In this document: positions 297-48,727 of the stretch, piece after piece
Layout: each line of letters begins with the position of its first letter
How positions within the stretch are numbered: the first letter of the stretch is position 1
Assembly: GCA_963749655.1 (NCBI GenBank)
Contig: CAVVOB010000013.1
Coordinates: 64,001-128,000, forward strand
Direction of reading: 5' to 3'
Length of the DNA: 64,000 bases
Origin: Nitrospirota bacterium
GTDB taxonomy: Bacteria > Nitrospirota > UBA9217
Position numbers and translations under genes: made by a program
Notes under the pieces: generated by a model
What the model was told of the DNA's origin: nothing
Database searches by the model: none
Seen by the model: the letters and a program-made list of their open reading frames with translations, nothing else

Positions 297-410
297 AGCG
301 ACAGCTAAACCGTTATCAGTGAAAGCTGAATTTCAGGGTTTTATGGACAGGATGCCTCCGCTTTACTATGCCGTAAGCTCCAAGACACCGTGATGACTTC
401 GGGAGGGTTA

Positions 411-3400
411 ATGAATATGAATAAACTGGGTAAGTTTGAATGCTTACTTGTATTCTGCGTGTTGACGACGTTGATATTCGCTCTCACGAGTCAAGCGGGA
501 ACCAGCAGCAAAGCGGGTCCAGGTCGTGCGGTACTGAAATCGCAGGGATCTGGTGGTGGCGGAGGGGATGAAATGGGCGGCAGCGGGACTGTGTCCCCGG
601 ACCTCTTCACCGGCACAATGAGCTACAGTATCCCCATCGAAGTTGCTCCTGGGCGCAAGGGTATGCAACCGAATCTAGCACTGACATACAGAAGCAGCAG
701 CGGCAATGGATGGCTCGGCGTCGGCTGGGATCTGGACATTGGTGCAATAGAGAGGAGCACTCGTGATGGCGTTGACTATCTTGCCGATGACTATGTTCTC
801 CGACTGGCGGGGTCATCCATAGAGCTTGTCAACATAGGCAGCAACATATATCAAGCAAAGATCGAAGGTTCTTTTTTGCGCATTAAGAAGAACGCCAATA
901 GCTGGGAAGTGACAGATAAAGTCGGAAGGAAATATTATTTCGGCCAGACCAACCGACAGTTTGACCCAGATGACTCAAGCAAAGTTTTCAGATGGTGCCT
1001 TGACCAATTCGTTGACACCAGTGGGAATTCCGTGGAGTTTCATTATTGGAGACACCAGAACCAGCTTTATATTGACTATATTGACTACACCCACAGCACT
1101 TCATCGGCTCCGGGAAAGACTTTGAATCTCGTAAAATTTTACTGGGAAGAACGTCTTGATGCGCCAGGAACGTATGCCACAAATTTTTATGTAGAAACAG
1201 CGTACCGGCTTAAAACTGTCGATGTGTGGGGTGGTGGGACGCGGCTGCGGACATATAAACTGGACTATGCTCCTCTGGGAAGCACGGTAACAGGAAGATC
1301 CCTCCTGTCCAGCGTTCAACAGTTTGGTGCGGATGCAAATGTTAATGCCGGAGAAATCACGAACGCATCATCGGCGAGTAAACTTCCCGCATACAGTTTT
1401 ATCCAAAATAACAGCAATATCTCCGGTTACGGCATTAATAGGCAAGGGCCGCCGCTGTCCTTGGGAGGAAGCGATTTTTATGCCAAATTTGATCTTGCCA
1501 GGCTACGGATCGGCGATTTTAATGGCGACGGATTGACTGATTTTGCATGGATAGACGGATGGAGTTCTGCTCCGCCGATGACTATATACTATACAAAGCC
1601 GGACGGTACCGGGTATGATCTGGTATCGGGGCCGTCAATGAGTGTAAATGGAAATTTCGAATGGGGCGGAGTAGATATCGCAAGGGTCATTGTCGGAGAC
1701 TTCAACGGAGACGGTAAGACAGATATTGCCAGAATTAACAGCCAGGGTACGACAGATTACATGAGCATCTATTACGCAAGATCTGATGGAAGAGGATTTG
1801 TAGAACCTGCAGTTTATGGCCCTCCAGTTTGGGTGATCAACGATTCTAGCGGCGCTGCCGTCGATGTGGCAAGAATAAAACTCGGCGATTTCAACGGCGA
1901 CGGCAAGACTGATATCGCCCGAATCCCGGGATGGGGTTCAGGCAACCCTTCGGAATTGATTGTTTATTATGCAAATACAAATGGCATTGGTTTTACTCAG
2001 TCGCCGGTTTCGGGTCCTTCACTGGGGGTCACTAACGACAATGAGGGCGCGTTGCTGGACATCTCCCGCGTTATCATTGCAGATTTCAATGGTGACGGGA
2101 AGGATGATGTCGCCTATATAAATGGTTACGATTCGACGGCACATGCGATGAGCATCTATTATGCTAACGCTAATACACCCGGATTCACTGCCGCGTTTCC
2201 AGGGCCTCCAGTGACTGTGTATAATACGCTTCCACCGCGAGCTTCATATGATATCTCAAGAGTAAAGATCGGTGATTTTAACGGCGACGGTAAAGTCGAT
2301 ATCGCAATTGTGAACGGTTGGGACACGACTGAAGCGATGACCATCTATCTGTCGAAAGGTTTTGGTTTTGCCGCCCCTATTGCAGGGCCTGCTTTTACCG
2401 TGAGTTCCTACTTCGGCGGTGCCTATGTGGATGGCATTACACGAGTGTTGATAGCTGACTTCAACGGCGACGGGATGAGCGATATCGCACACTTAGAGGG
2501 ACAAAGCAGCGACGCTCCGCTAGCGATCTATTATTCGACCGGGCACGGGTTCCTCAGTACACCCTTTTATGGACCGACATTGCCTACAGCATTTGGGGAT
2601 GGGCTTGACGCCATGAGGCTCAAGATCGGAAATTTTAACGGAGATCGTCTGGCCGATATAGTTCGTGTTAGCTCATTTGGCAATTCCCAACCGGTGGACA
2701 TGTATTTATCCTCCGGTGTGGAACCTGATCTTGTCAAGAATATCGTCACCCCCTTTGCAGGATCATTCGATATTGTATACAGGTCATCGGACTACTACGA
2801 CAATCTCTCTCTTCCCTTTATCTTGCAGACCGTCAGCGTTGTTAAGGCTTGTGATAATCCATCTTGCGATGGGACTTCATCGACAACCCGCTATTCATAT
2901 TCAGGTGGATTTTTTCATATCGGCTCAAGTGAGCTCCGGGGGTTCAATTCAGTTGAAATGACCGGGCCGGCCGGTCCACAGAATGAACAGCTGATAACCA
3001 AAACCTGGTTTCATCAAGGAAACGAGACGGCAGTTGTTGACGTGGATGACCCCCTTGGCATAGAAGGGTATATGAAAGGGAAGCCTTACCGCACAATAGT
3101 AACTAACGAACAGGGCACCAAACTTTCAGAAGTAACAACAGCCTACTCCGAAGATTCCTCGGAGCCCTATTTCAATCCGCCTTTTCAGGTCGATTCGTAC
3201 GTCTGTAACGGCGCTTGCGGCATTCATACCAGAATGACCTATAGCTATGACAGCTATGGCAATGCGACCCTGGAGAACTTCTATGATGTTGCAACGAATT
3301 CGACGCCTTATCGCTTCGTGCAAAGATCATTCACTAGTAATGATAGTGATTGGATCGTGGGCTTGCCCTTAACCGAAAATATTTTCAGCGGCGCAACAGG

Positions 3401-6400
3401 CACTAAAATCTCCGGTGTTGAATATTATTATGATGGCGGCACGAACTGCACTTCATATCCCCATTATACGGATCCGACAAAGGGCAATCTTACAAGCGTC
3501 GTCAAGTGGAATAACATGGGCGATAGTCCGGAAACACTTATGGCATATGACGAATATGGCAACGTTTCCTGTACCCGCGATGCAAATGAAAACACCCCGT
3601 CAACTGTGTCTTATGATGGTACGTTTACGTTCCCGAGAGTTGCGACAAATCCGCTTGGTCACCAGACGATCACGGAGTATTACGGCGTGGATGATGTCCC
3701 CGCTGACAATGGGCTATACGGTCAGGTGAAGAGCGTTATAGACCCGAACCTTCAAATTACGACAATGGTATATGATTCTCTTGGACGAAAATCCAGTGTA
3801 ACCACACCCGATGGGTCCTGGACGAGCTGGGAATACAACAACTTCGGAGATCCGGTTAATCAACACATCAAGCGAACCAGTAAGGACACCAACACACAGG
3901 ATAACAACGGGGGCCTAGTTTCCTTGACCTATTTCGACGGGCTGGGACGGACGTACCTTAAGAAGACGGATGGACCGAGTAATAAGATAATTGTGACGGA
4001 CACGGTATACAATGCCACGGGTACGGTTAATGAAACATCCCTGCCGCATTTTGAGAACGACTCTTCAGATGGGGCACGCTATATTACCTACAAGTATGAT
4101 GCGCAAGGCCGGGTTACGGAGGTTACAAATTCCGACCAGACTAAAATCAAGACATGTTATGACACCGGCGTGAGCGCGGGAATTGACGCAAACGGACATA
4201 AGAAAGTTGAACGGCGGGATTCCCTTGGGCGTCTTATACAAGTGGAGGAATACAGGGACACTTATGCCTCATGTTCGACAACCGACGGAACAATCTACGC
4301 AACCACGATATATCAATATAGTGAAATGGGAAACTTAACCACCGTTATCGATGCGTCCAACAATCACAGCATAATGACATATGACAGCTTGGGAAGAAAA
4401 AGATCAATGCAGGATCCTGATATGGGGTACTGGACCTATACTTACTATCCGAATGGTAATTTGTTGACTCAGACCGATCCAGACGGCGAGGCAAAGAAGA
4501 TCACGTTTTACTATGATGCGCTCAACAGGGTAACGCGTAAAGATTATGCCGATTCTTTAATGAGCGACGTGATCTATTCCTACGACGAGACGGAGAATTC
4601 CAAAGGAAGATTGACAACAATGGCAGATGGATCGGGGTTCACGAAGTATTATTACGATGCCATGGGCAGGACCAAAACGGTCACGCAAAATTTAAATAAT
4701 AACAATTACACAATTCAGTACGAGTACGATGACCTTGGCAGACTGAAAAAATTGACTTATCCGGATACGGATAATGATCCGAATAACGATATTGTTCAAT
4801 ATTCCTATGATACGGGCGGTAATCTTTACCAAGTATTCAGTCAAAGCACAAGCAGCGTTTACGCAGCCTATACTGACTACACCGCTCTCAGTCAGCCGAG
4901 GAATGTCGCATTCGCAAACGGCTTAGTAACGGATTACACATATACGTTGAGCAATAGTCGTCTCAATTCCATAGTAACCGGCAAGAGCGGCCAGCCGGCT
5001 CTACTTGACCTTACCTATGGTTATGACGATGTGGGTAATGTTACGACCATAACAGATAATGCGACGCGAGAGCATCAACCTGATCATAACTATGACGAGG
5101 TTGTGACATATTCTCATCTTACCGATGGTAATACACGTCCCCACGCCGTGTCGGCCTCAGAGGGGATTATTTATGGGTACGATTCCAGAGGAAACATGAC
5201 TTCTGACGGCATGAGGACAATCAACTACAACACAGACAACATGCCGACCTCAATGACGATAAATAACGTTTCGACAAATTTCACATACGACGGTGCCGGC
5301 GCCAGAGTAGCAAAAACCAAGTCTGGCTATACGCAGATATATATCGGCAAACTCTATACTTGCAACGCAGAAGAGTGCATGCAAAATATTTTTGCAGGCA
5401 GTACCAGGATTGCACAAAAGGTGGCGGGCACGGACAATATAATTTACTTTCATCCCGACCATCTCGGTAGTACCAGCATTGTAACTAATGCAACTGGTTC
5501 AGTTACCGAAAATATTCAGTACTTCCCCTTTGGAGAAACGCGGCAGGATTACGTCCCCTTGAATGGAGGCGACCCAACATCCTACAAATATACATCGCAG
5601 GAGTTTGATGCTGAGACCTCGCTTTACTATTACAACGCGCGGTATTATAATCCGGTGATGGGGAGGTTCATCAGCGCGGATACGATAGTACCTGATCCGC
5701 GAAATCCGCAGGCGTTTAATCGTTATAGCTATGTACAGAATAATCCGCTGAGGTATGTTGATCCTGAAGGGCATTTTTTAATGGCGCCAATTATCATAGG
5801 TCTCGCTATTGGTGCTGTAAGTGCTGGTGCCCAGAGTGATTGGAATGCCGATGCTATGGTCCGAGGGGCCGGTACAGGTGCGGTTTCCGGTCTAGTAGGC
5901 AGCTGGGGATACGGTTTAGTAGCGAATTCAATAGGGGGCATAGGGGGCGGAGCTTTAGGCGGCGCTATGTCTGGTTCGGTCAGCGCAGCTCTGAATGGCG
6001 GAAATTTGGGGCAAGCAGCGCTGTGGGGTGCTATAGGCGGTGCTGTCTTCTCAGGAATAGGAAAATCCGAGATGAATGGTTTTGGCAAAACGGTCACATC
6101 TGCAGCTGCAGGTGGCTTCCTAAGTGAGGCCTCCGGCGGCAGATTTGAAACGGGTTTCATCACTGCCGGAGCAGTCTCAGGCTTAGCTAATGCTGCGCTA
6201 TATATGCGTGAGCAGATGATAATATCATCATTACAAGATGATAGAAACTGGCATGGTGTAAGTGACGGTCTTTTTGGCGATCTATTTAAGCTGGCAGGCG
6301 GCCGCTGGGTTGAAGATCTTTTACCTCGACAGCAAGAATGTTCTAAGTTGGGTTGTCTCCAAGGTGGACCAGGTAAGTTGTTTGGAGTTCCATATGCACC

Positions 6401-6620
6401 AGGTTCTATGGAGGATCACCTCCTTGAGGTTTACGCAGGTCCTCATGATTACCTTAATTCTCGGTATTGGTATAATCCCAACACTGGAAATGCATATAAC
6501 TACACAGGGATCAAAGCCGCTGTAGGGGCTGTATTGAATTGGGGTAATGTTTTACTTGCAACACCATTCGCGGCTGCGTCTGTTACCCCGAGTTATATGT
6601 ATCCAATAATGTTTAAGTAA
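411..6620 (+). CDS. Rhs/YD-repeat polymorphic toxin: signal peptide, SpvB/TcB-like N-terminus, 7 FG-GAP/VCBS repeats, YD repeats, Rhs core, variable C-terminal tip
   Basis: GGAGG RBS at 402-406 with ATG at 411/417; hydrophobic signal ending TSQA; SpvB-like DLFTGTMSYSIPIEVAPGRKGMQPNLALTY; 7 x (G/A)(D/N)FNGD(G/R); many YD motifs; Rhs core DHLGS...YYYNARYYNP..GRFISAD...NNPLRYVDPEG. Confidence 0.93.
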   Translation: MNMNKLGKFECLLVFCVLTTLIFALTSQAGTSSKAGPGRAVLKSQGSGGGGGDEMGGSGTVSPDLFTGTMSYSIPIEVAPGRKGMQPNLALTYRSSSGNGWLGVGWDLDIGAIERSTRDGVDYLADDYVLRLAGSSIELVNIGSNIYQAKIEGSFLRIKKNANSWEVTDKVGRKYYFGQTNRQFDPDDSSKVFRWCLDQFVDTSGNSVEFHYWRHQNQLYIDYIDYTHSTSSAPGKTLNLVKFYWEERLDAPGTYATNFYVETAYRLKTVDVWGGGTRLRTYKLDYAPLGSTVTGRSLLSSVQQFGADANVNAGEITNASSASKLPAYSFIQNNSNISGYGINRQGPPLSLGGSDFYAKFDLARLRIGDFNGDGLTDFAWIDGWSSAPPMTIYYTKPDGTGYDLVSGPSMSVNGNFEWGGVDIARVIVGDFNGDGKTDIARINSQGTTDYMSIYYARSDGRGFVEPAVYGPPVWVINDSSGAAVDVARIKLGDFNGDGKTDIARIPGWGSGNPSELIVYYANTNGIGFTQSPVSGPSLGVTNDNEGALLDISRVIIADFNGDGKDDVAYINGYDSTAHAMSIYYANANTPGFTAAFPGPPVTVYNTLPPRASYDISRVKIGDFNGDGKVDIAIVNGWDTTEAMTIYLSKGFGFAAPIAGPAFTVSSYFGGAYVDGITRVLIADFNGDGMSDIAHLEGQSSDAPLAIYYSTGHGFLSTPFYGPTLPTAFGDGLDAMRLKIGNFNGDRLADIVRVSSFGNSQPVDMYLSSGVEPDLVKNIVTPFAGSFDIVYRSSDYYDNLSLPFILQTVSVVKACDNPSCDGTSSTTRYSYSGGFFHIGSSELRGFNSVEMTGPAGPQNEQLITKTWFHQGNETAVVDVDDPLGIEGYMKGKPYRTIVTNEQGTKLSEVTTAYSEDSSEPYFNPPFQVDSYVCNGACGIHTRMTYSYDSYGNATLENFYDVATNSTPYRFVQRSFTSNDSDWIVGLPLTENIFSGATGTKISGVEYYYDGGTNCTSYPHYTDPTKGNLTSVVKWNNMGDSPETLMAYDEYGNVSCTRDANENTPSTVSYDGTFTFPRVATNPLGHQTITEYYGVDDVPADNGLYGQVKSVIDPNLQITTMVYDSLGRKSSVTTPDGSWTSWEYNNFGDPVNQHIKRTSKDTNTQDNNGGLVSLTYFDGLGRTYLKKTDGPSNKIIVTDTVYNATGTVNETSLPHFENDSSDGARYITYKYDAQGRVTEVTNSDQTKIKTCYDTGVSAGIDANGHKKVERRDSLGRLIQVEEYRDTYASCSTTDGTIYATTIYQYSEMGNLTTVIDASNNHSIMTYDSLGRKRSMQDPDMGYWTYTYYPNGNLLTQTDPDGEAKKITFYYDALNRVTRKDYADSLMSDVIYSYDETENSKGRLTTMADGSGFTKYYYDAMGRTKTVTQNLNNNNYTIQYEYDDLGRLKKLTYPDTDNDPNNDIVQYSYDTGGNLYQVFSQSTSSVYAAYTDYTALSQPRNVAFANGLVTDYTYTLSNSRLNSIVTGKSGQPALLDLTYGYDDVGNVTTITDNATREHQPDHNYDEVVTYSHLTDGNTRPHAVSASEGIIYGYDSRGNMTSDGMRTINYNTDNMPTSMTINNVSTNFTYDGAGARVAKTKSGYTQIYIGKLYTCNAEECMQNIFAGSTRIAQKVAGTDNIIYFHPDHLGSTSIVTNATGSVTENIQYFPFGETRQDYVPLNGGDPTSYKYTSQEFDAETSLYYYNARYYNPVMGRFISADTIVPDPRNPQAFNRYSYVQNNPLRYVDPEGHFLMAPIIIGLAIGAVSAGAQSDWNADAMVRGAGTGAVSGLVGSWGYGLVANSIGGIGGGALGGAMSGSVSAALNGGNLGQAALWGAIGGAVFSGIGKSEMNGFGKTVTSAAAGGFLSEASGGRFETGFITAGAVSGLANAALYMREQMIISSLQDDRNWHGVSDGLFGDLFKLAGGRWVEDLLPRQQECSKLGCLQGGPGKLFGVPYAPGSMEDHLLEVYAGPHDYLNSRYWYNPNTGNAYNYTGIKAAVGAVLNWGNVLLATPFAAASVTPSYMYPIMFK

Positions 6621-6656: not shown

Positions 6657-7271
6657 ATGATGAAAATTCTTGTAGCTTTTTTCTTATTATTAACATCTAC
6701 ATCTAGAACTTACGCAATTGAGGGGAGTGTACGTCCGCCGGAGATTTGGCGATTAGCACAAGCTCCGACAGGCACTGATTGTATCAACGTAGCGGGAACG
6801 TATTCCTTTTCGGGGGAAGGCGCACCAGGAATGGCTTTGAATTTTCGAGGGTTCCCCTATGCATTAGATGATATGCTCAATGTTTTGGTGCCCAGTCGGG
6901 AGAGAAATAATATATCGCATGTGGCTGTAGAGCAACGAGAAAAGTCAGAATTTTACGCTACTTTTTTTTCAACTTCGGGGTTGTCATATCAGGGAAAAAT
7001 TGAGCCATATGCTGTTCCGACATGCAAGGCGGACAGGGTAATTTTCGAGACAAAGAATATCGAAACAAAAGGAGAAGCTACCTCAGGTCACGCCAACATT
7101 ACAGCAATACTTTTTCGCGGAGACGATAATTCCTTAATAATCTATTTGTCGATTGAAAAAGTTAAGGGCTTGTTCTCATTTGGTAAAACGCATACTGAAG
7201 AATACTGGGCAAAGTTTAAGTCGATAAAGCCAAACGTCACTCAAGAGGAACCGAATGGGGTCAGACATTAG
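6657..7271 (+). CDS. Putative cognate immunity protein (exported)
   Basis: Immediately downstream of the Rhs tip; AT-rich; N-terminal signal peptide MMKILVAFFLLLTSTSRTYA; last codons and stop lie in the transposon left end. Confidence 0.6.
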   Translation: MMKILVAFFLLLTSTSRTYAIEGSVRPPEIWRLAQAPTGTDCINVAGTYSFSGEGAPGMALNFRGFPYALDDMLNVLVPSRERNNISHVAVEQREKSEFYATFFSTSGLSYQGKIEPYAVPTCKADRVIFETKNIETKGEATSGHANITAILFRGDDNSLIIYLSIEKVKGLFSFGKTHTEEYWAKFKSIKPNVTQEEPNGVRH

Positions 7272-8264
7272 AAATTAAGTTATTGATATCCTCTGTCCCT
7301 TTTGATAATCTCCCGTCATGGCGCGAAAACCCCGCATCGAATACGAGGGAGCATTCTATCACGTTATAACCCGTGGAAATCAGCGCCAGAAGATTTCTAA
7401 AGATACCGCTGATTATCAAAAATACCTCCAGTTCCTTACGATCTGCAAGAACCGTTACGGGTTCTATCTCCACGCCTACGTTCTCATGGGGAACCATGTC
7501 CATCTTCTGATTGAGACCCGGGCAAAGCCGCTGTCCAAGATACTCCAGAGCCTCAATCAACGCTATACCCTTTATTATAACCACAAGTACCGTACGGTCG
7601 GTCATCTGTTCCAGGGACGCTACAAGGCAATCCTGTGCGAAAAGGACGCTTATTTGCTGGCGTTGCTGCGCTATATCCAGAGGAATCCGCTCCGCGCTAA
7701 AATCGCCGACCGACTGGACCGCTATCCCTGGAGCAGTCATCATGCCTATACGGGCAAATCAAATCCCTTAAGCCTTGTCGATACAGACCAGGTGCTGCGG
7801 ATGTTCTCGGAGAAAAGACAGCGCACGAAACGTTTGTATCGGGAATTCATGCGGGAATCCCAGGATCTGACATCAGGAGAAGTCTATGCCGTCAAGGAGC
7901 AGAGAGTCCAGGGAAGCGATGCTTTCGTCGATCGGGTGCTTGCGGATCGGGAAGAGGAGGGATCTCCAAAAAAGAGGTCGCTCCCCCTCGATGCCATTGC
8001 CGAGGCTGCAGCACGCAGCGAAGGTGTCGAGAAAGAAGCGTTGCGGTCGAGGACGCGCGTCCGAAAAGTGACGAAAGCACGAAAGGTGTTCAGTCTTGTG
8101 GCACGAAACATGGGCCATGCCGTGAAGAACATAGCGGCATATCTTTCCGTGGATGGAGCAGCGATAAGTGGTTACGAACTGGACCGCGCAAAATTAGCAG
8201 GACAAGTCGTGAAAATAACAAAGCAGCTGGAGAAAACTTAGTTTCTGATGTCTGACCCCATTCG
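7252..8264 (+). mobile_element. TIR-bounded element carrying a HUH Y1 (RAYT-like) transposase
   Basis: Left 7252-7281 cgaatggggtcagacattagaaattaagtt versus reverse complement of right 8235-8264 cgaatggggtcagacatcagaaactaagtt: 28/30 identical; encloses a single transposase ORF; no obvious target-site duplication. Confidence 0.85.
7318..8241 (+). CDS. REP-associated-type tyrosine transposase (Y1_Tnp, HUH) with C-terminal HTH (DnaA_C-like) region
   Basis: MARKPRI..GAFYHVITRGN, HUH motif NHVHLL, GHLFQGRYKA, catalytic Y in YIQRNP, YPWSS; stop codon lies inside the right TIR. Confidence 0.92.
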   Translation: MARKPRIEYEGAFYHVITRGNQRQKISKDTADYQKYLQFLTICKNRYGFYLHAYVLMGNHVHLLIETRAKPLSKILQSLNQRYTLYYNHKYRTVGHLFQGRYKAILCEKDAYLLALLRYIQRNPLRAKIADRLDRYPWSSHHAYTGKSNPLSLVDTDQVLRMFSEKRQRTKRLYREFMRESQDLTSGEVYAVKEQRVQGSDAFVDRVLADREEEGSPKKRSLPLDAIAEAAARSEGVEKEALRSRTRVRKVTKARKVFSLVARNMGHAVKNIAAYLSVDGAAISGYELDRAKLAGQVVKITKQLEKT

Positions 8265-8280
8265 TCTCCCTTCGTCTCCC

Positions 8281-8400
8281 TTCTGGAGCGGTGATCCGCG
8301 AGATGTGGATATCCTTCATGACTTGCTTCAACAGATAATAGACTTTTTGGATTTAGCATCAGACGCAGAAGATCTTGAATCTAGGAGGTGTGAATTATGA
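8281..8400 (+). pseudogene. Startless 3' gene fragment, likely an orphan Rhs toxin tip
   Basis: Open frame FWSGDPRDVDILHDLLQQIIDFLDLASDAEDLESRRCEL* begins next to the right TIR; its TGA overlaps the ATG of the next gene (ATGA). Confidence 0.5.
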
Positions 8401-8612
8401 CCATGTCAATCATATTTTTAATTTTTTTTGCTTTTATCGGGGTTGCATTCATATTTTTAGCGAAGAACAAAAGATTTAATGAAAGCATCGCTAAAACTCA
8501 TGGTGAGGCACATGCTAGGTGGACAAAAAAGACTTTGATCGTAACAGGATATGGTATTTTAATAGTGGCTGGTCTAAAATTTATATTGCTTTTCGGTTTA
8601 AGGGGCTTTTAA
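8397..8612 (+). CDS. Small two-TM membrane protein, putative orphan immunity protein
   Basis: 71 aa, two hydrophobic helices, AGGAGG RBS upstream, AT-rich, coupled to the upstream fragment. Confidence 0.6.
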   Translation: MTMSIIFLIFFAFIGVAFIFLAKNKRFNESIAKTHGEAHARWTKKTLIVTGYGILIVAGLKFILLFGLRGF

Positions 8613-8627
8613 GCCATAAAGGCTGAC

Positions 8628-8688
8628 GGTCAAAAAGGGTCGAAGGGATCGAATGGGTGACGGTGCCTTTTAATGGGTGACCCCAAAC
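8628..8688. repeat. Degenerate copy of the transposon end motif (mini-element or footprint)
   Basis: cgaagggatcgaatgggtgac...aatgggtgaccccaaa resembles both the left end (cgaatggggtcagac) and the right end (tgaccccattcg) of 7252-8264; 10-bp direct repeat aatgggtgac at 8652 and 8672. Confidence 0.5.
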
Positions 8689-8696
8689 TAGGGATT

Positions 8697-8729
8697 AAAA
8701 AAGGAGGAACTCGTTTCGAGTTCCTCCTT
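8697..8729 (-). terminator. Rho-independent terminator for the minus-strand 9672-8757 genes
   Basis: Perfect 13-bp stem aaggaggaactcg/cgagttcctcctt followed by a U-run on the minus strand. Confidence 0.8.
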
Positions 8730-8756
8730 GCATTTACAAATCTACTTCAGATCCAT

Positions 8757-9278
8757 TTACTGCCCTGGATACGCCGATGGCGAAGGATCGTAATAGCCGG
8801 GAGGAGGCGGGGGCGGGAGCCGCCGCTCTACACGCCTGACACGCACTCCGGGAACCACATTCCCCTTGGCATACATGCACTGCTGGTATGCGATATCGTA
8901 CCGGCGCTGCGCCTCCCACCCGTAATAATGACCTGCGTTCGCGCCCTCGGAAGTCCCGACCAGAAGCCCGGTGCCGGCGCCGATTGCAGCGCCTTCGCCG
9001 GCATGACCCGACGCTGCGCCGATGACCGCTCCGATCCCTGCGCCTACGATCGTCCCTATGGCGGCCCCTGACGCGACACTTTGATTGGCCGTTTCCTGAG
9101 GACTCATCCCGATCTGCTGCCGGGCCCACGATCTGCAGACCGCGTCCTCGGCCTGGAACACTTCAAATGGCTTTCCCTGGGTCGGCAGAACCATCACGCT
9201 CGGCCCTGTGGGAAGGGTCGCACATCCGCCTGCAAAAAGCATGGCCGCGAATGCCAGAATGCTGAATTTTGATTTCAT
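8757..9278 (-). CDS. Glycine-zipper lipoprotein
   Basis: Lipoprotein signal MKSKFSILAFAAMLFAGG-C; Gly-zipper GAAIGTIVGAGIGAVIGAASG..GAAIGAGTGLLVG; YQQCMYAKG; Pro-rich tail. Confidence 0.85.
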   Translation of the reverse strand: MKSKFSILAFAAMLFAGGCATLPTGPSVMVLPTQGKPFEVFQAEDAVCRSWARQQIGMSPQETANQSVASGAAIGTIVGAGIGAVIGAASGHAGEGAAIGAGTGLLVGTSEGANAGHYYGWEAQRRYDIAYQQCMYAKGNVVPGVRVRRVERRLPPPPPPGYYDPSPSAYPGQ

Positions 9279-9285
9279 GGCAGAT

Positions 9286-9672
9286 TTACTCCTTTCCCTG
9301 CGGCGGAGCAGGATTGGGCGTAGGCACAACCTTCATCCAGCCACCAGGGCATTGCTTAACGTAGGGATAGTACGTCTTGGAATCCGGACAATAGTACCAG
9401 TAATACTCCTCAGCCGGCTGAGTCTGCTGATCATAAACAGGCGCCTGTTCCTGGATCACCACGGGCGGCCGCGGTTCGTAGGGATAGCCCCACCCAGGGC
9501 CCCATCCCCATCCGGGACCCCATCCCCATCCCGGACCCCAACCCCAACCGGGGCCCCACCCCGGTCCGATAAAGATGCCCCCTCGTATTCCAATGTGATC
9601 CGCGAATACGGGAACAGCGAGCGCAAAAATCACCACCAAAACCACGAGGATAATATAAAGACTCTTTTTCAT
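9286..9672 (-). CDS. Secreted Gly/Pro/Trp-rich protein
   Basis: Signal peptide, tandem GPGWGW repeats, C-terminal YWYYCPDSKTYYPYVKQCPGGW motif; 7 bp from the downstream Gly-zipper gene. Confidence 0.8.
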   Translation of the reverse strand: MKKSLYIILVVLVVIFALAVPVFADHIGIRGGIFIGPGWGPGWGWGPGWGWGPGWGWGPGWGYPYEPRPPVVIQEQAPVYDQQTQPAEEYYWYYCPDSKTYYPYVKQCPGGWMKVVPTPNPAPPQGKE

Positions 9673-47373: not shown

Positions 47374-48727
47374 ATGGCCCCTCATCCGTTATATCAGGAC
47401 ACCATAGAGTATCTCTTTGCGCTCCAGAAACACGGGATCAAGCTGGGGTTGTCCAACAGCGTGCAGATCCTGGACCGGCTGGGCAATCCCCACAGAAAAT
47501 TCCGGACCGTCCATGTCGCGGGCACGAACGGCAAGGGATCGACCTCGGTGTTCATCGCGGAGATGCTCAGGGCCGCCGGCTACCGCGTCGGCCTGTACAC
47601 CTCCCCCCACCTGGTTGACTTCAGCGAGCGGATCAGGGTCAACAATGTCCCGGTGCCGGAAGCAGAAGTCGTGGAGCTGGCGCAGCAGGTGAGGGAGGAA
47701 TGCAGGCGTACGGCGGCTGCCGACGGATCGGGCCCCATTCAGCCCACGTTCTTCGAGGTAACGACGGCGATTGCGTTCCTCTATTTCGCCCGGCAAGGCG
47801 TTGATATCGCCGTCGTCGAAGTCGGCATGGGCGGCCGCTGCGACTCGACGAACGTTATTTCCCCCCTCGTATCGGTCATCACCAACATCGACATCGAACA
47901 TACCGAGTTTCTCGGCGACACCCTGGAGCGGATCGCGGGCGAAAAGGCCGGCATCATCAAACAGGGGGCTCCGGTCGTGACCGGGGCGGCCCAGCAGGAA
48001 GTCCTCGCGGTGTTCGAGCGCGAAGCCGGCGTCAAGGGGACGCGTGTGCTTCGTCTGGGCCGAGAATTCGCGGTCTCGGCGGAAAGCTCCTCCGGGGACG
48101 GCCAGGTCTTTACGTACCGTGGAACGGTCGCGCACTACAGCGCCCTGCGCATTCGCCTGCTCGGCAGGCATCAGCTTGAGAACGCCGGCCTGGCGCTTGC
48201 GGCTGTTGAATGCCTGCGCGGCGCCGGCGTGGCCGTCGACGAGGCCGCGGTGCGGTCCGGGCTGGCGCAGGCCCGATGGGAAGGCCGGCTGGAACGCATG
48301 AGCGCGAAATCCCGATATCTTTCTGGACGGCGCCCACAACCCCGCGTCTGCGCGCAGGCTCGTTGCGGCTGTGCGGGAACTCATGCCCGGTTACCGGAAG
48401 CTTATCCTGATCATCGGGATCCTGGGAGACAAGGACTATCGGGGAATCGTGCGCGAGCTCGTTCCCCTTGCAGCGACGGTCGTGGCAACCAGGCCCCGTT
48501 ATGCACGGGCGCTGGATGTCGAGTCGCTCTGCACTGAAATCCGGAAGCACCACGGCTCGGTCGTTCCAGCAGATTCCGTGGGCGAGGCCATCGTCGCAGC
48601 GCGGGAGTCGGCTGCGCCCGGCGACGTGATCCTCGTGACGGGATCCCTGTATGTCGTGGGAGACGCACGGGCATTTCTTTCCCAGGACTCCGCGAAGGGC
48701 TCAGCCCTGCGGGATCTCACCGGGTAG
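47374..48727 (+). CDS. folC: Folylpolyglutamate/dihydrofolate synthase (apparent +1 frameshift near 48308)
   Basis: HVAGTNGKGS, YTSPHL, EVGMGGR.DSTN; DGAHNP and TGSLYVVG in the shifted frame. Confidence 0.93.

Follow-up and report, generated by a model that had tools for sequence, protein, structure and literature searches.

We analysed a stretch of 64,000 nucleotides (nt) from a Nitrospirota bacterium (contig CAVVOB010000013.1, positions 64,001 to 128,000), referred to below as the window, in which an Rhs toxin gene and its immunity gene are followed by a transposon of the TIRtron type, a small two-frame cassette and the remains of further mobile-element ends. The TIRtron probably inserted, perhaps with an adjacent deletion, into a toxin-immunity array, the cassette being a decayed older module and the sequence past it a scar of a repeat and an insertion sequence (IS); we hold this reading with moderate confidence. 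Taken alone, the locus is unremarkable: a transposon of a known type, IS scars and what may be a decayed toxin-immunity pair. The window's genome is denoted G000 and its contig with the window C13; other G numbers stand for relatives' genomes, C numbers for contigs and L numbers for fetched loci (L189 is G299:C69 and L193 is G126:C6).

The order of events that we infer begins with the TIRtron, which would have landed at the 3' edge of the pair formed by the Rhs gene and its immunity gene, p204, directly against the 3' end of p204. An older toxin gene would have lost its 5' part, either by an adjacent deletion on TIRtron insertion or by replacement of everything upstream, and what was left behind would be its last 39 codons and the coupled gene for a small membrane protein, p71. 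Further to the right, an earlier repeat copy or a collapsed repeat pair would have been entered by an IS1111-group, bridge-RNA-type element, which would then have been almost wholly deleted, leaving 20 nt. The HUH enzyme of the TIRtron would, as far as seen, move its own element only, with no sign of cassette capture.

The TIRtron at 7247-8269

Judged from its sequence, the unit at 7247-8269 (forward strand; complete, 1,023 bp) is a TIRtron, an autonomous TIRYT element and probably a discrete mobile unit, because of its Y1_Tnp domain, its probable DnaA-like helix-turn-helix, its 35-nt GGGGWSAS repeats, a second copy in the genome, relatives that carry no cargo and a public contig that leaves the window's sequence at 7247. 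The TIRYT gene (7318-8241, forward strand) encodes a Y1/HUH transposase of 307 amino acids with a probable DnaA-like C-terminal helix-turn-helix. The protein matches Pfam Y1_Tnp with E 6.6e-15 (55.7 bits against a cut-off of 23 bits) and, weakly, Bac_DnaA_C with E 1.7e-6 (28.4 bits, under the cut-off of 31.5 bits); its closest NCBIfam model, also under cut-off, is REP_Tyr_transpos (REP-associated tyrosine transposase, E 1.2e-19). Its sequence contains NHVHLL and LRYIQRNP, which from the family at large we take to be the HUH motif and the catalytic-tyrosine site.

The left terminal inverted repeat (7247-7281, forward strand, core GGGGTCAGACAT) and the right one (8235-8269, reverse strand, overlapping the transposase stop codon) are 35 nt long and 89% complementary. 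Within them GGGGTCAG is found at 7257-7264 and its complement at 8252-8259, matching the published consensus GGGGWSAS. Just beyond the right repeat a decamer, CGTCTCCCTT, can be read twice in tandem (8263-8283, forward strand); L032, L034 and the solo repeat of C20 show comparable tandem repeats at the outer end.

The second copy lies at G000:C28, where 77% identity extends across window positions 7243-8261 between different flanks, with the repeats kept. The repeat family has 10 members in the window's genome, and six solo repeats lie on C20, C27 (two), C30 (two) and C35. Among 14 full-length relatives from other phyla, 12 have a pair of GGGGTCAG-type repeats about 1.0-1.1 kb apart, leaving no room for cargo, and no repeat pair was detected around the TIRYT gene in the other two (L030 and L033). 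Compact, cargo-free TIRtrons were also found at 7 further loci. A public contig of 151 nt and low depth carries a 96%-alike copy whose likeness to the window ends exactly at 7247. The preliminary description of this DNA had proposed an undescribed HUH-driven system; the HUH element is instead of the TIRtron/TIRYT kind described in 2013.

Some minor features of the repeat family may be recorded here. At G000:C30:67003-67145, two left-type solo repeats stand in direct orientation 111 nt apart with similar sequence after each, forming a small tandem array. On C27, solo repeats at 48213 and 52953 face each other across 4.7 kb, which is probably coincidence; they were considered as the ends of a cargo element and rejected as such, since, judged by eye, they enclose apparent housekeeping genes (threonine-synthase-like and pyridoxal-phosphate-enzyme-like). 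A composite transposon with a further repeat upstream of the Rhs gene was likewise rejected, GGGGTCAGAC/GGGGTCACCC sites being present on C13 only at 71257, 72259 and 72684. In a single low-depth public contig of a relative (273 nt), position 7488 is joined back to 7252 with 6 extra letters; this joint may represent a rearranged or tandem TIRtron copy.

The Rhs toxin and its immunity protein

Upstream of the TIRtron lies the Rhs/YD-repeat toxin gene (390-6620, forward strand; 2076 amino acids), recognised from its open reading frame (ORF) and a core motif search, with a core end of ...NPLRYVDPEGH. Its C-terminal toxin domain (5790-6617, forward strand; 276 amino acids) is rich in glycine zippers and has homologues of 41-45% identity that terminate Rhs genes in G133, G384 and G274. 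Each of these three best homologues is followed by a gene for a signal-peptide protein or lipoprotein, of 208, 196 and 198 amino acids, respectively.

In the window this position is taken by p204 (6657-7271, forward strand), which encodes a secreted protein of 204 amino acids with a signal peptide. Its last 8 codons and stop fall within the left repeat of the TIRtron, the repeat having replaced the stop of p204 and added 8 codons. A word search for relatives of p204 returned only p204 itself, and the relatives came from synteny. Because the G384 immunity protein aligns with p204 residues 41-191 (30% identity, E 4e-7) and the alignment reaches that protein's own end, we regard it as settled, at the level of such comparison, that p204 is the conserved cognate immunity protein of the Rhs toxin and is essentially full length. 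The 39-codon frame beyond the TIRtron was also considered as a displaced tail of p204; the homologues end near p204 residue 193, which rules this out.

The cassette beyond the right repeat

The preliminary description had noted, next to the right repeat, a frame whose stop codon overlaps the start of a 71-residue gene with two transmembrane helices, and these features are all present. The frame (8284-8400, forward strand; 39 codons) ends in a TGA (8398-8400) that overlaps the ATG (8397-8399) of p71 (8397-8612, forward strand; 71 amino acids), giving an ATGA overlap at 8397-8400; an AGGAGG at 8383-8388 lies 8 nt ahead of this ATG, and p71 has two clean hydrophobic helices with a basic loop between them. 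The frame had been called startless. It has no start of its own in the 39 codons, but it is open from 8242, after the transposase TAG (8239-8241), and an ATG at 8248, inside the right repeat, gives a frame of 50 codons. A complete Rhs gene and the immunity gene that belongs to it precede the cassette, in which a small coupled gene stands directly 3' of the frame. The frame may be the 3' remnant of a displaced toxin gene, and p71 is a candidate orphan immunity gene.

The right repeat itself provides (window 8239-8250) an outward start in frame with the downstream ORF, ATG TCT GAC CCC, which is also in the frame of the transposase, past its TAG. In G126:C6 (L193, reverse strand, about 4171), TTG TCT GAC CCC opens an ORF of 186 amino acids that overlaps an Rhs-like gene by 4 nt.

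Several results weigh against the cassette as a decayed older module. Among 1.84 billion representatives the 39-codon frame had 3 matches at E <=0.001, none of them Rhs; by eye these are repeat proteins with many matched stretches (leucine-rich-repeat-like, FG-GAP-like and HEAT-like), and no credible homologue was found in that set, in the window's genome or in the fetched Rhs loci. As the preliminary description had stated, no Rhs core segment precedes the fragment, and the core motif search found no remnant (PxxxxDPxGL region) in 8248-8400. For p71 there was no homologue among 5.8 billion clusters, no paralogue in the window's genome and no match in the fetched loci; Rhs-linked homologues were found for neither frame. 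Since p71 has no relatives among so many clusters, it may be no gene, or no immunity gene. Its only Pfam match, under cut-off, is DUF4064 (E 0.0025). In the Atlas its best named lead is Imm17 at 0.85, a lead only, and its nearest neighbours are unnamed clusters at 0.91 with low recognition, under the level reached by most real families. An open frame of 45-50 codons in AT-rich DNA would arise by chance about 1 time in 20, by a rough estimate. As neither frame has relatives, we infer their roles from position alone, and "toxin tip plus immunity" is an unproven description of them.

The same results would be expected if the frame and p71 were random open frames in AT-rich filler between two mobile-element insertions, with no orphan module involved. 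Base composition agrees with this, being 38-40% GC across 8251-8700 and 0.61 past 8700, with a genome mean of about 56%, and so do the missing homologues and the Atlas recognition of p71. Random filler accounts poorly for the strong AGGAGG 8 nt before the p71 start together with the stop-start overlap, or for two clean helices separated by a basic loop. Moreover, the same layout after the repeat holds recognisable toxin remnants and coupled small genes in G299, as described below. We consider chance frames a doubtful explanation, and continue to favour a decayed older module.

TIRtrons beside Rhs 3' ends in other genomes

At 9 loci, spread over 8 genomes and 6 families, an Rhs core end has a same-strand TIRYT gene no more than about 3 kb away: G000:C13 (the window), G384:C10, G299:C69, G299:C83, G275:C15, G126:C6, G178:C9, G360:C34 and G038:C72. 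The TIRYT proteins of these loci are 33-50% identical to that of the window. When the best 150 of 480 Rhs rows were compared with the best 150 of 591 TIRYT rows, 6 close pairs were found, including the window, and the same Rhs rows gave 0 close pairs with the best 150 of 960 rows for the rve transposase; overall densities lead to a rough expectation of 0.1-0.4 pairs by chance.

The arrangement varies among these loci. In G384 a homologous toxin-immunity pair is followed, after 92 nt, by a 995-bp TIRtron of another subfamily, whereas in G275 and G126 the TIRtron stands between the Rhs block and ribosomal-protein genes. In G299:C69, toxin 1 and immunity 1 come first, then a truncated TIRtron remnant; next are an orphan toxin 2, in which ANNPVIYTDPSGH is retained, and immunity 2, and after these stands a complete TIRtron, past which a 123-residue C-terminal toxin fragment has a stop overlapping the start of a 103-residue lipoprotein gene. 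The remnant consists of a repeat and about 60 nt of leader. Its repeat is a direct copy of the left repeat with 3 mismatches in 24 (shuffle expectation 0.01), and because the TIRtron leader is still attached it represents a truncated TIRtron and no bare recombination site. In G299:C83 a 5'-truncated Rhs gene comes after the right repeat and overlaps a gene for a four-helix membrane protein; an uninterrupted, 89%-identical paralogue of the truncated gene on contig C3 extends further upstream. The layout of G126:C6 resembles the G299 loci, in that an unidentified 186-residue ORF starting inside the repeat overlaps an Rhs-like gene.

Between the right repeat and the start of the truncated toxin genes of G299:C69 and C83 lie 50-75 nt. 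Of the 7 Rhs-linked loci that can be read past the right repeat, 4 have a frame there that is toxin-related or a candidate (the window, where the frame is a candidate only, G299:C69, G299:C83 and G126:C6). Module boundaries in related Rhs arrays had been predicted to coincide with end motifs, and in several genomes they do. The 5' breakpoint of the orphan toxin in G299:C69 is also the site of a perfect-looking palindrome of 14+14 nt (L189 7075-7102, ACCGGATTATTTGC/GCAAACAATCCGGT), made of the ANNPV codons and their inverted copy; it may mark how the orphan formed.

From these loci it could be argued that the TIRtron is a regular 3' component of an exchangeable unit of toxin domain, immunity gene and TIRtron. 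The TIRtron might serve as the homology arm on the downstream side and the Rhs core as that on the upstream side, or the transposase might make the downstream joint on replacement of old modules by new ones, which would leave 5'-truncated toxins exactly at the right end. The homologous toxin-immunity pairs of the window and G384 are each followed by a TIRtron, three different G299 modules (two on C69, one on C39) each have the same left repeat after them, and all 9 loci are co-oriented. The truncated toxins of G299:C69 and C83, so near the right repeat, and the G126:C6 ORF that starts inside it point the same way. However, the TIRYT protein of G384 shares only 40% identity with that of the window, and closer TIRYT relatives lie elsewhere, so the unit was not inherited as a block. 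In G299:C69 the truncated TIRtron joins a typical orphan with its ANNPVIYTDPSGH core remnant, which fits ordinary serial displacement, and in G275 and G126 the TIRtron is merely at the edge of the Rhs island. We regard such a linked unit as a tentative possibility, and prefer insertion of a TIRtron into an existing array.

Other observations temper the significance of the recurrence. The comparison with rve transposases is a rough one, because the rows were the best 150, ranked by similarity to the query, and genomes that are related do not count as independent cases. The TIRYT proteins closest to that of the window (about 55-60% identity, same family) are not beside Rhs ends among the matches listed. 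In the window's genome no toxin gene lies near any of the six solo repeats, which rejects them as toxin-linked sites and makes Rhs adjacency a tendency, not a rule. Since other transposases also sit in Rhs 3' flanks (IS481-like in G133, IS3-like in G360 and an integrase fragment in G274), tolerance of insertions in these flanks may explain part of the TIRYT enrichment.

It is conceivable, if unlikely, that TIRYT elements are working partners of Rhs toxin-immunity turnover in the phylum, with modules carrying or joining via a 3' TIRtron, as a portable homology arm or by HUH-catalysed joining at the right repeat, and a bridge-RNA-type IS1111 element specifically parasitising the TIRYT repeats. 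If so, old toxins would be cut exactly at the repeat and their immunity genes kept, a transposon-assisted building of immunity arrays. The biology of TIRYT elements is almost unstudied, and a repeated, co-oriented association with Rhs 3' ends across six families, with several truncation points of old toxins at the right end of a TIRtron, offers a concrete connection, open to testing, from an HUH transposon to how polymorphic toxin loci diversify.

A composite scar and an IS1111-group element

At the end of the AT-rich island the preliminary description had placed a degenerate transposase-end motif. An end-like sequence is indeed present at 8668-8685: read directly it is 78% like 8243-8260, and its complementarity to 7256-7273 is 83%. 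GC rises from 0.377 at 8401-8700 to 0.607 at 8701-9000. Yet the motif is no plain degenerate end: on comparison with its relatives, 8637-8688 resolves into a composite scar of three parts, to a large extent an IS1111 footprint. The first part (8637-8657, forward strand, GGGTCGAAGGGATCGAATGGG) reproduces the outer portion of the repeat in inverted, degenerate form; its edit distance to that portion of the right repeat is 5 of 17, and just 2 of the genome's 429 other GAATGGG sites match it equally well. The second (8658-8677, forward strand, TGACGGTGCCTTTTAATGGG) is a footprint of the final 20 nt of an IS1111-group right end, recognised by an nhmmer profile. The third (8678-8688, forward strand, TGACCCCAAAC) comprises the TGACCCC core and outer half of a former repeat, oriented as the right repeat, and is identical to the outer half of the C20 solo repeat.

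The motif had been expected to exceed background, and it does: the 26-mer TGACGGYGCCTTTTAATGGGTGACCC, allowing up to 3 mismatches, occurs three times in the window's genome, three times in G023 and once in G024, was not found in the remaining 38 of the 40 relatives searched, and gave 0 hits when reversed as a control. A 19-mer core is present in at least 120 metagenome stretches, often at contig ends, with conserved sequence on its left side and none on its right. Upstream sequence of 1.5 kb or more is available for 30 occurrences; in 11 of these a protein of about 340 amino acids is encoded about 490 nt upstream, and both of the two such proteins scanned carry DEDD_Tnp_IS110 and Transposase_20. 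The element, widespread in metagenomes, is about 1.55-1.7 kb long. Its left end measures about 100 nt and its right end, which is structured, about 490 nt; the subterminal inverted repeats are of 10 bp (AAAAGGCACC / GGTGCCTTTT). At the right tip a TTGACA box, at a distance of 17 nt, faces GATAAT at the left tip, so that the junction of a circle would form a promoter. A short left end, a long right end and subterminal inverted repeats are criteria of the IS1111 group (PMC11208160), and the parent of the footprint is accordingly classed, from these features, as an IS1111-group element of the IS110 family.

When the flanks of 9 complete copies at metagenome loci (L064, L092, L095, L103, L105, L110, L118, L123 and L124) were rejoined, all 9 gave GGG(G)TCA with repeat-like sequence after it, one reconstructed site matching the repeat of a G299 TIRtron; the element therefore appears to target TIRYT repeats at TCA/TGA. 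An IS1111-group element apparently programmed for the TIRYT repeat would extend the natural targets of bridge-RNA recombinases by a new class. The window and its genome, the assembly of which is 86.6% complete, yielded no match to a transposase of this family (DEDD_Tnp_IS110/Transposase_20 type).

Three other explanations of the region were rejected. With a profile of 10 full IS1111-like right ends, nhmmer matched only 8662-8684 in the window (E 1.9e-6), so the spacer 8284-8657 is no diverged right end; in G023 and G024, by comparison, the "spacer" beside the motif is the IS1111-like right end itself (E 3.5e-72 and 5.6e-63). A structured RNA is not indicated, as Rfam gave no match in the window stretch or in 6 motif-bearing loci. 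Nor does the motif look like a promoter or the end of another TIRYT paralogue, 0 of 4 paralogues (three on C23, one on C30) having GGGGTCA/TGACCCC nearby.

These parts bear on the proposal of an integron-like role for the HUH enzyme, in which it would take up, insert or remove immunity cassettes between its ends. Transposase-end sequences do bracket the cassette: the right repeat on one side and, on the other, what is left of further ends from that repeat family, among them one in the same orientation. G299:C69 shows a mirror-image layout in which a direct copy of the left repeat flanks a toxin-immunity pair beside a TIRYT gene. But the cassette lies outside the working repeat pair, related TIRtrons are without cargo, and there is one cassette per locus with no copy in a second context. 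The extra repeat of G299 belongs to a truncated element, the only third repeat among the 7 other Rhs-linked TIRtrons that were compared, and six have none. The best-conserved 20 nt of the third motif stem from the IS1111-group element, and the same footprint adjoins solo repeats on C23 and C28 with only 4-20 nt between and no cassette. The circular or rearranged junctions that capture would produce did not appear in public contigs, although this is weak evidence, the contigs being tiny and of low depth: four public sequencing runs contained <=9% of the sampled words and yielded 14 short pieces, none crossing 8264 or 8650. Capture of this kind is thus highly improbable, and TIRtron insertion into an older array remains the reading that we favour.

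Further traces of the IS1111-like element are found elsewhere. A 10-nt insertion, TTTTAATGGG, stands just before TGACCCC in a TIRYT right repeat of L074 (5760-5881) and of L062 (reverse strand, about 300-460), and in L062 an intact sister repeat (…AGCAAGCCTGACCCC) lies about 100 nt away; the insertion looks like a footprint of imprecise loss of the element. The right tip of the IS is partially duplicated in tandem in L059 (about 300-390) and L117 (about 60-120), and at G000:C20:89921-89990 the outer end of the solo repeat is duplicated (CAAACGGGACC repeated), with a second TGACCCC. The ends of both kinds of element seem prone to local duplication.

Relation to described systems

TIRtrons and TIRYT were named by Di Nocera et al. 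2013 (PMC3733652), with the repeat consensus GGGGWSAS. Quentin et al. 2018 (PMC6006769) place TIRYT in subclass 2.1, of which subclass 2.1.2 has a C-terminal helix-turn-helix of the Bac_DnaA_C, HTH_23 or HTH_28 type. The element of the window agrees with the published accounts in its RAYT-like Y1/HUH gene, its GGGGWSAS terminal inverted repeats and, probably, a DnaA-like C-terminal helix-turn-helix, and also in that its repeats occur single, paired or clustered in the genome. It differs in the link to Rhs polymorphic toxins at 9 loci, of which no mention was found in the available text of the two papers. A literature search on Rhs, orphan modules, immunity and REP-associated transposase gave no paper on such a link among those listed.

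Systems of repetitive extragenic palindromic (REP) sequences with REP-associated tyrosine transposases (RAYT) and REPINs are similar in that inverted copies of a short repeat, which is also dispersed between genes, stand on both sides of a related Y1 transposase. The repeats described here, by contrast, are no palindromic hairpins and form a small family (10 copies). As the transposase is present in 2 copies plus paralogues, the system is more IS-like than REP/RAYT.

Elements of the IS1111 group are known to target the ends of other elements, IS4321/IS5075 entering Tn21 inverted repeats and others REP or attC (PMC11208160). ISPpu9 is reported to sit in REP. With these the parent element of the footprint has in common its DEDD transposase, its unequal ends (the left one short, the right one of about 490 nt), subterminal inverted repeats of 10 bp, a -35 box at the right tip and a fixed position in a repeat. 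Its target, the TIRYT GGGGTCA repeat, differs, no such target having been found among the TIRYT titles listed or in the available text of PMC11208160, and the window holds a 20-nt footprint only.

Orphan toxin-immunity modules downstream of Rhs/CdiA genes, and serial displacement of effector genes, are known, for example from the immunity arrays of Vibrio cholerae (PMC5361080). The cassette resembles them in having a candidate 5'-truncated toxin remnant with an intact, coupled candidate immunity gene downstream of an active pair. It differs in that there is no core remnant, the truncation point coincides with a transposon end and neither product has homologues. The likeness to an integron consists of a recombinase gene beside short repeats that bound small promoterless genes; there is, however, no cassette array, no attC-like structure and no sign of cassette circles here, and the enzyme class differs.

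H-rpt, an ISAs1-type element, is a component of Escherichia coli Rhs elements that recurs downstream of core extensions, although its transposase is of another family than TIRYT. We know of no functional role for either H-rpt or a TIRtron beside Rhs.

Genomic setting of the locus

The locus lies within a variable block. A conserved gene for a protein of 677 amino acids, at window positions -7250 to -5220, is 0.4-2.2 kb from uvrC in 4 of 5 same-genus genomes, and about 15 kb from it in the window's genome. Because of this difference in spacing, the block from about -5200 to about 9700 (G000:C13:58800-73700) is taken to be variable DNA. The interval between the two genes is a variable hotspot whose contents differ among the four same-genus genomes, and it holds the only Rhs gene of the window's genome.

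To the right of the scar, GC-rich DNA sets in at the intrinsic terminator (8693-8729, reverse strand) of a glycine-zipper lipoprotein operon (8757-9672), which has a perfect 13-bp stem (8701-8713/8717-8729) followed by a T run on the minus strand. The operon proteins match Pfam Gly-zipper models. At 9286-9672 (reverse strand), adjoining the glycine-zipper lipoprotein gene, lies a gene for a protein of 128 amino acids with a run of GWGPGWGW repeats, and this gene pair is present in several paralogous copies in same-genus genomes.

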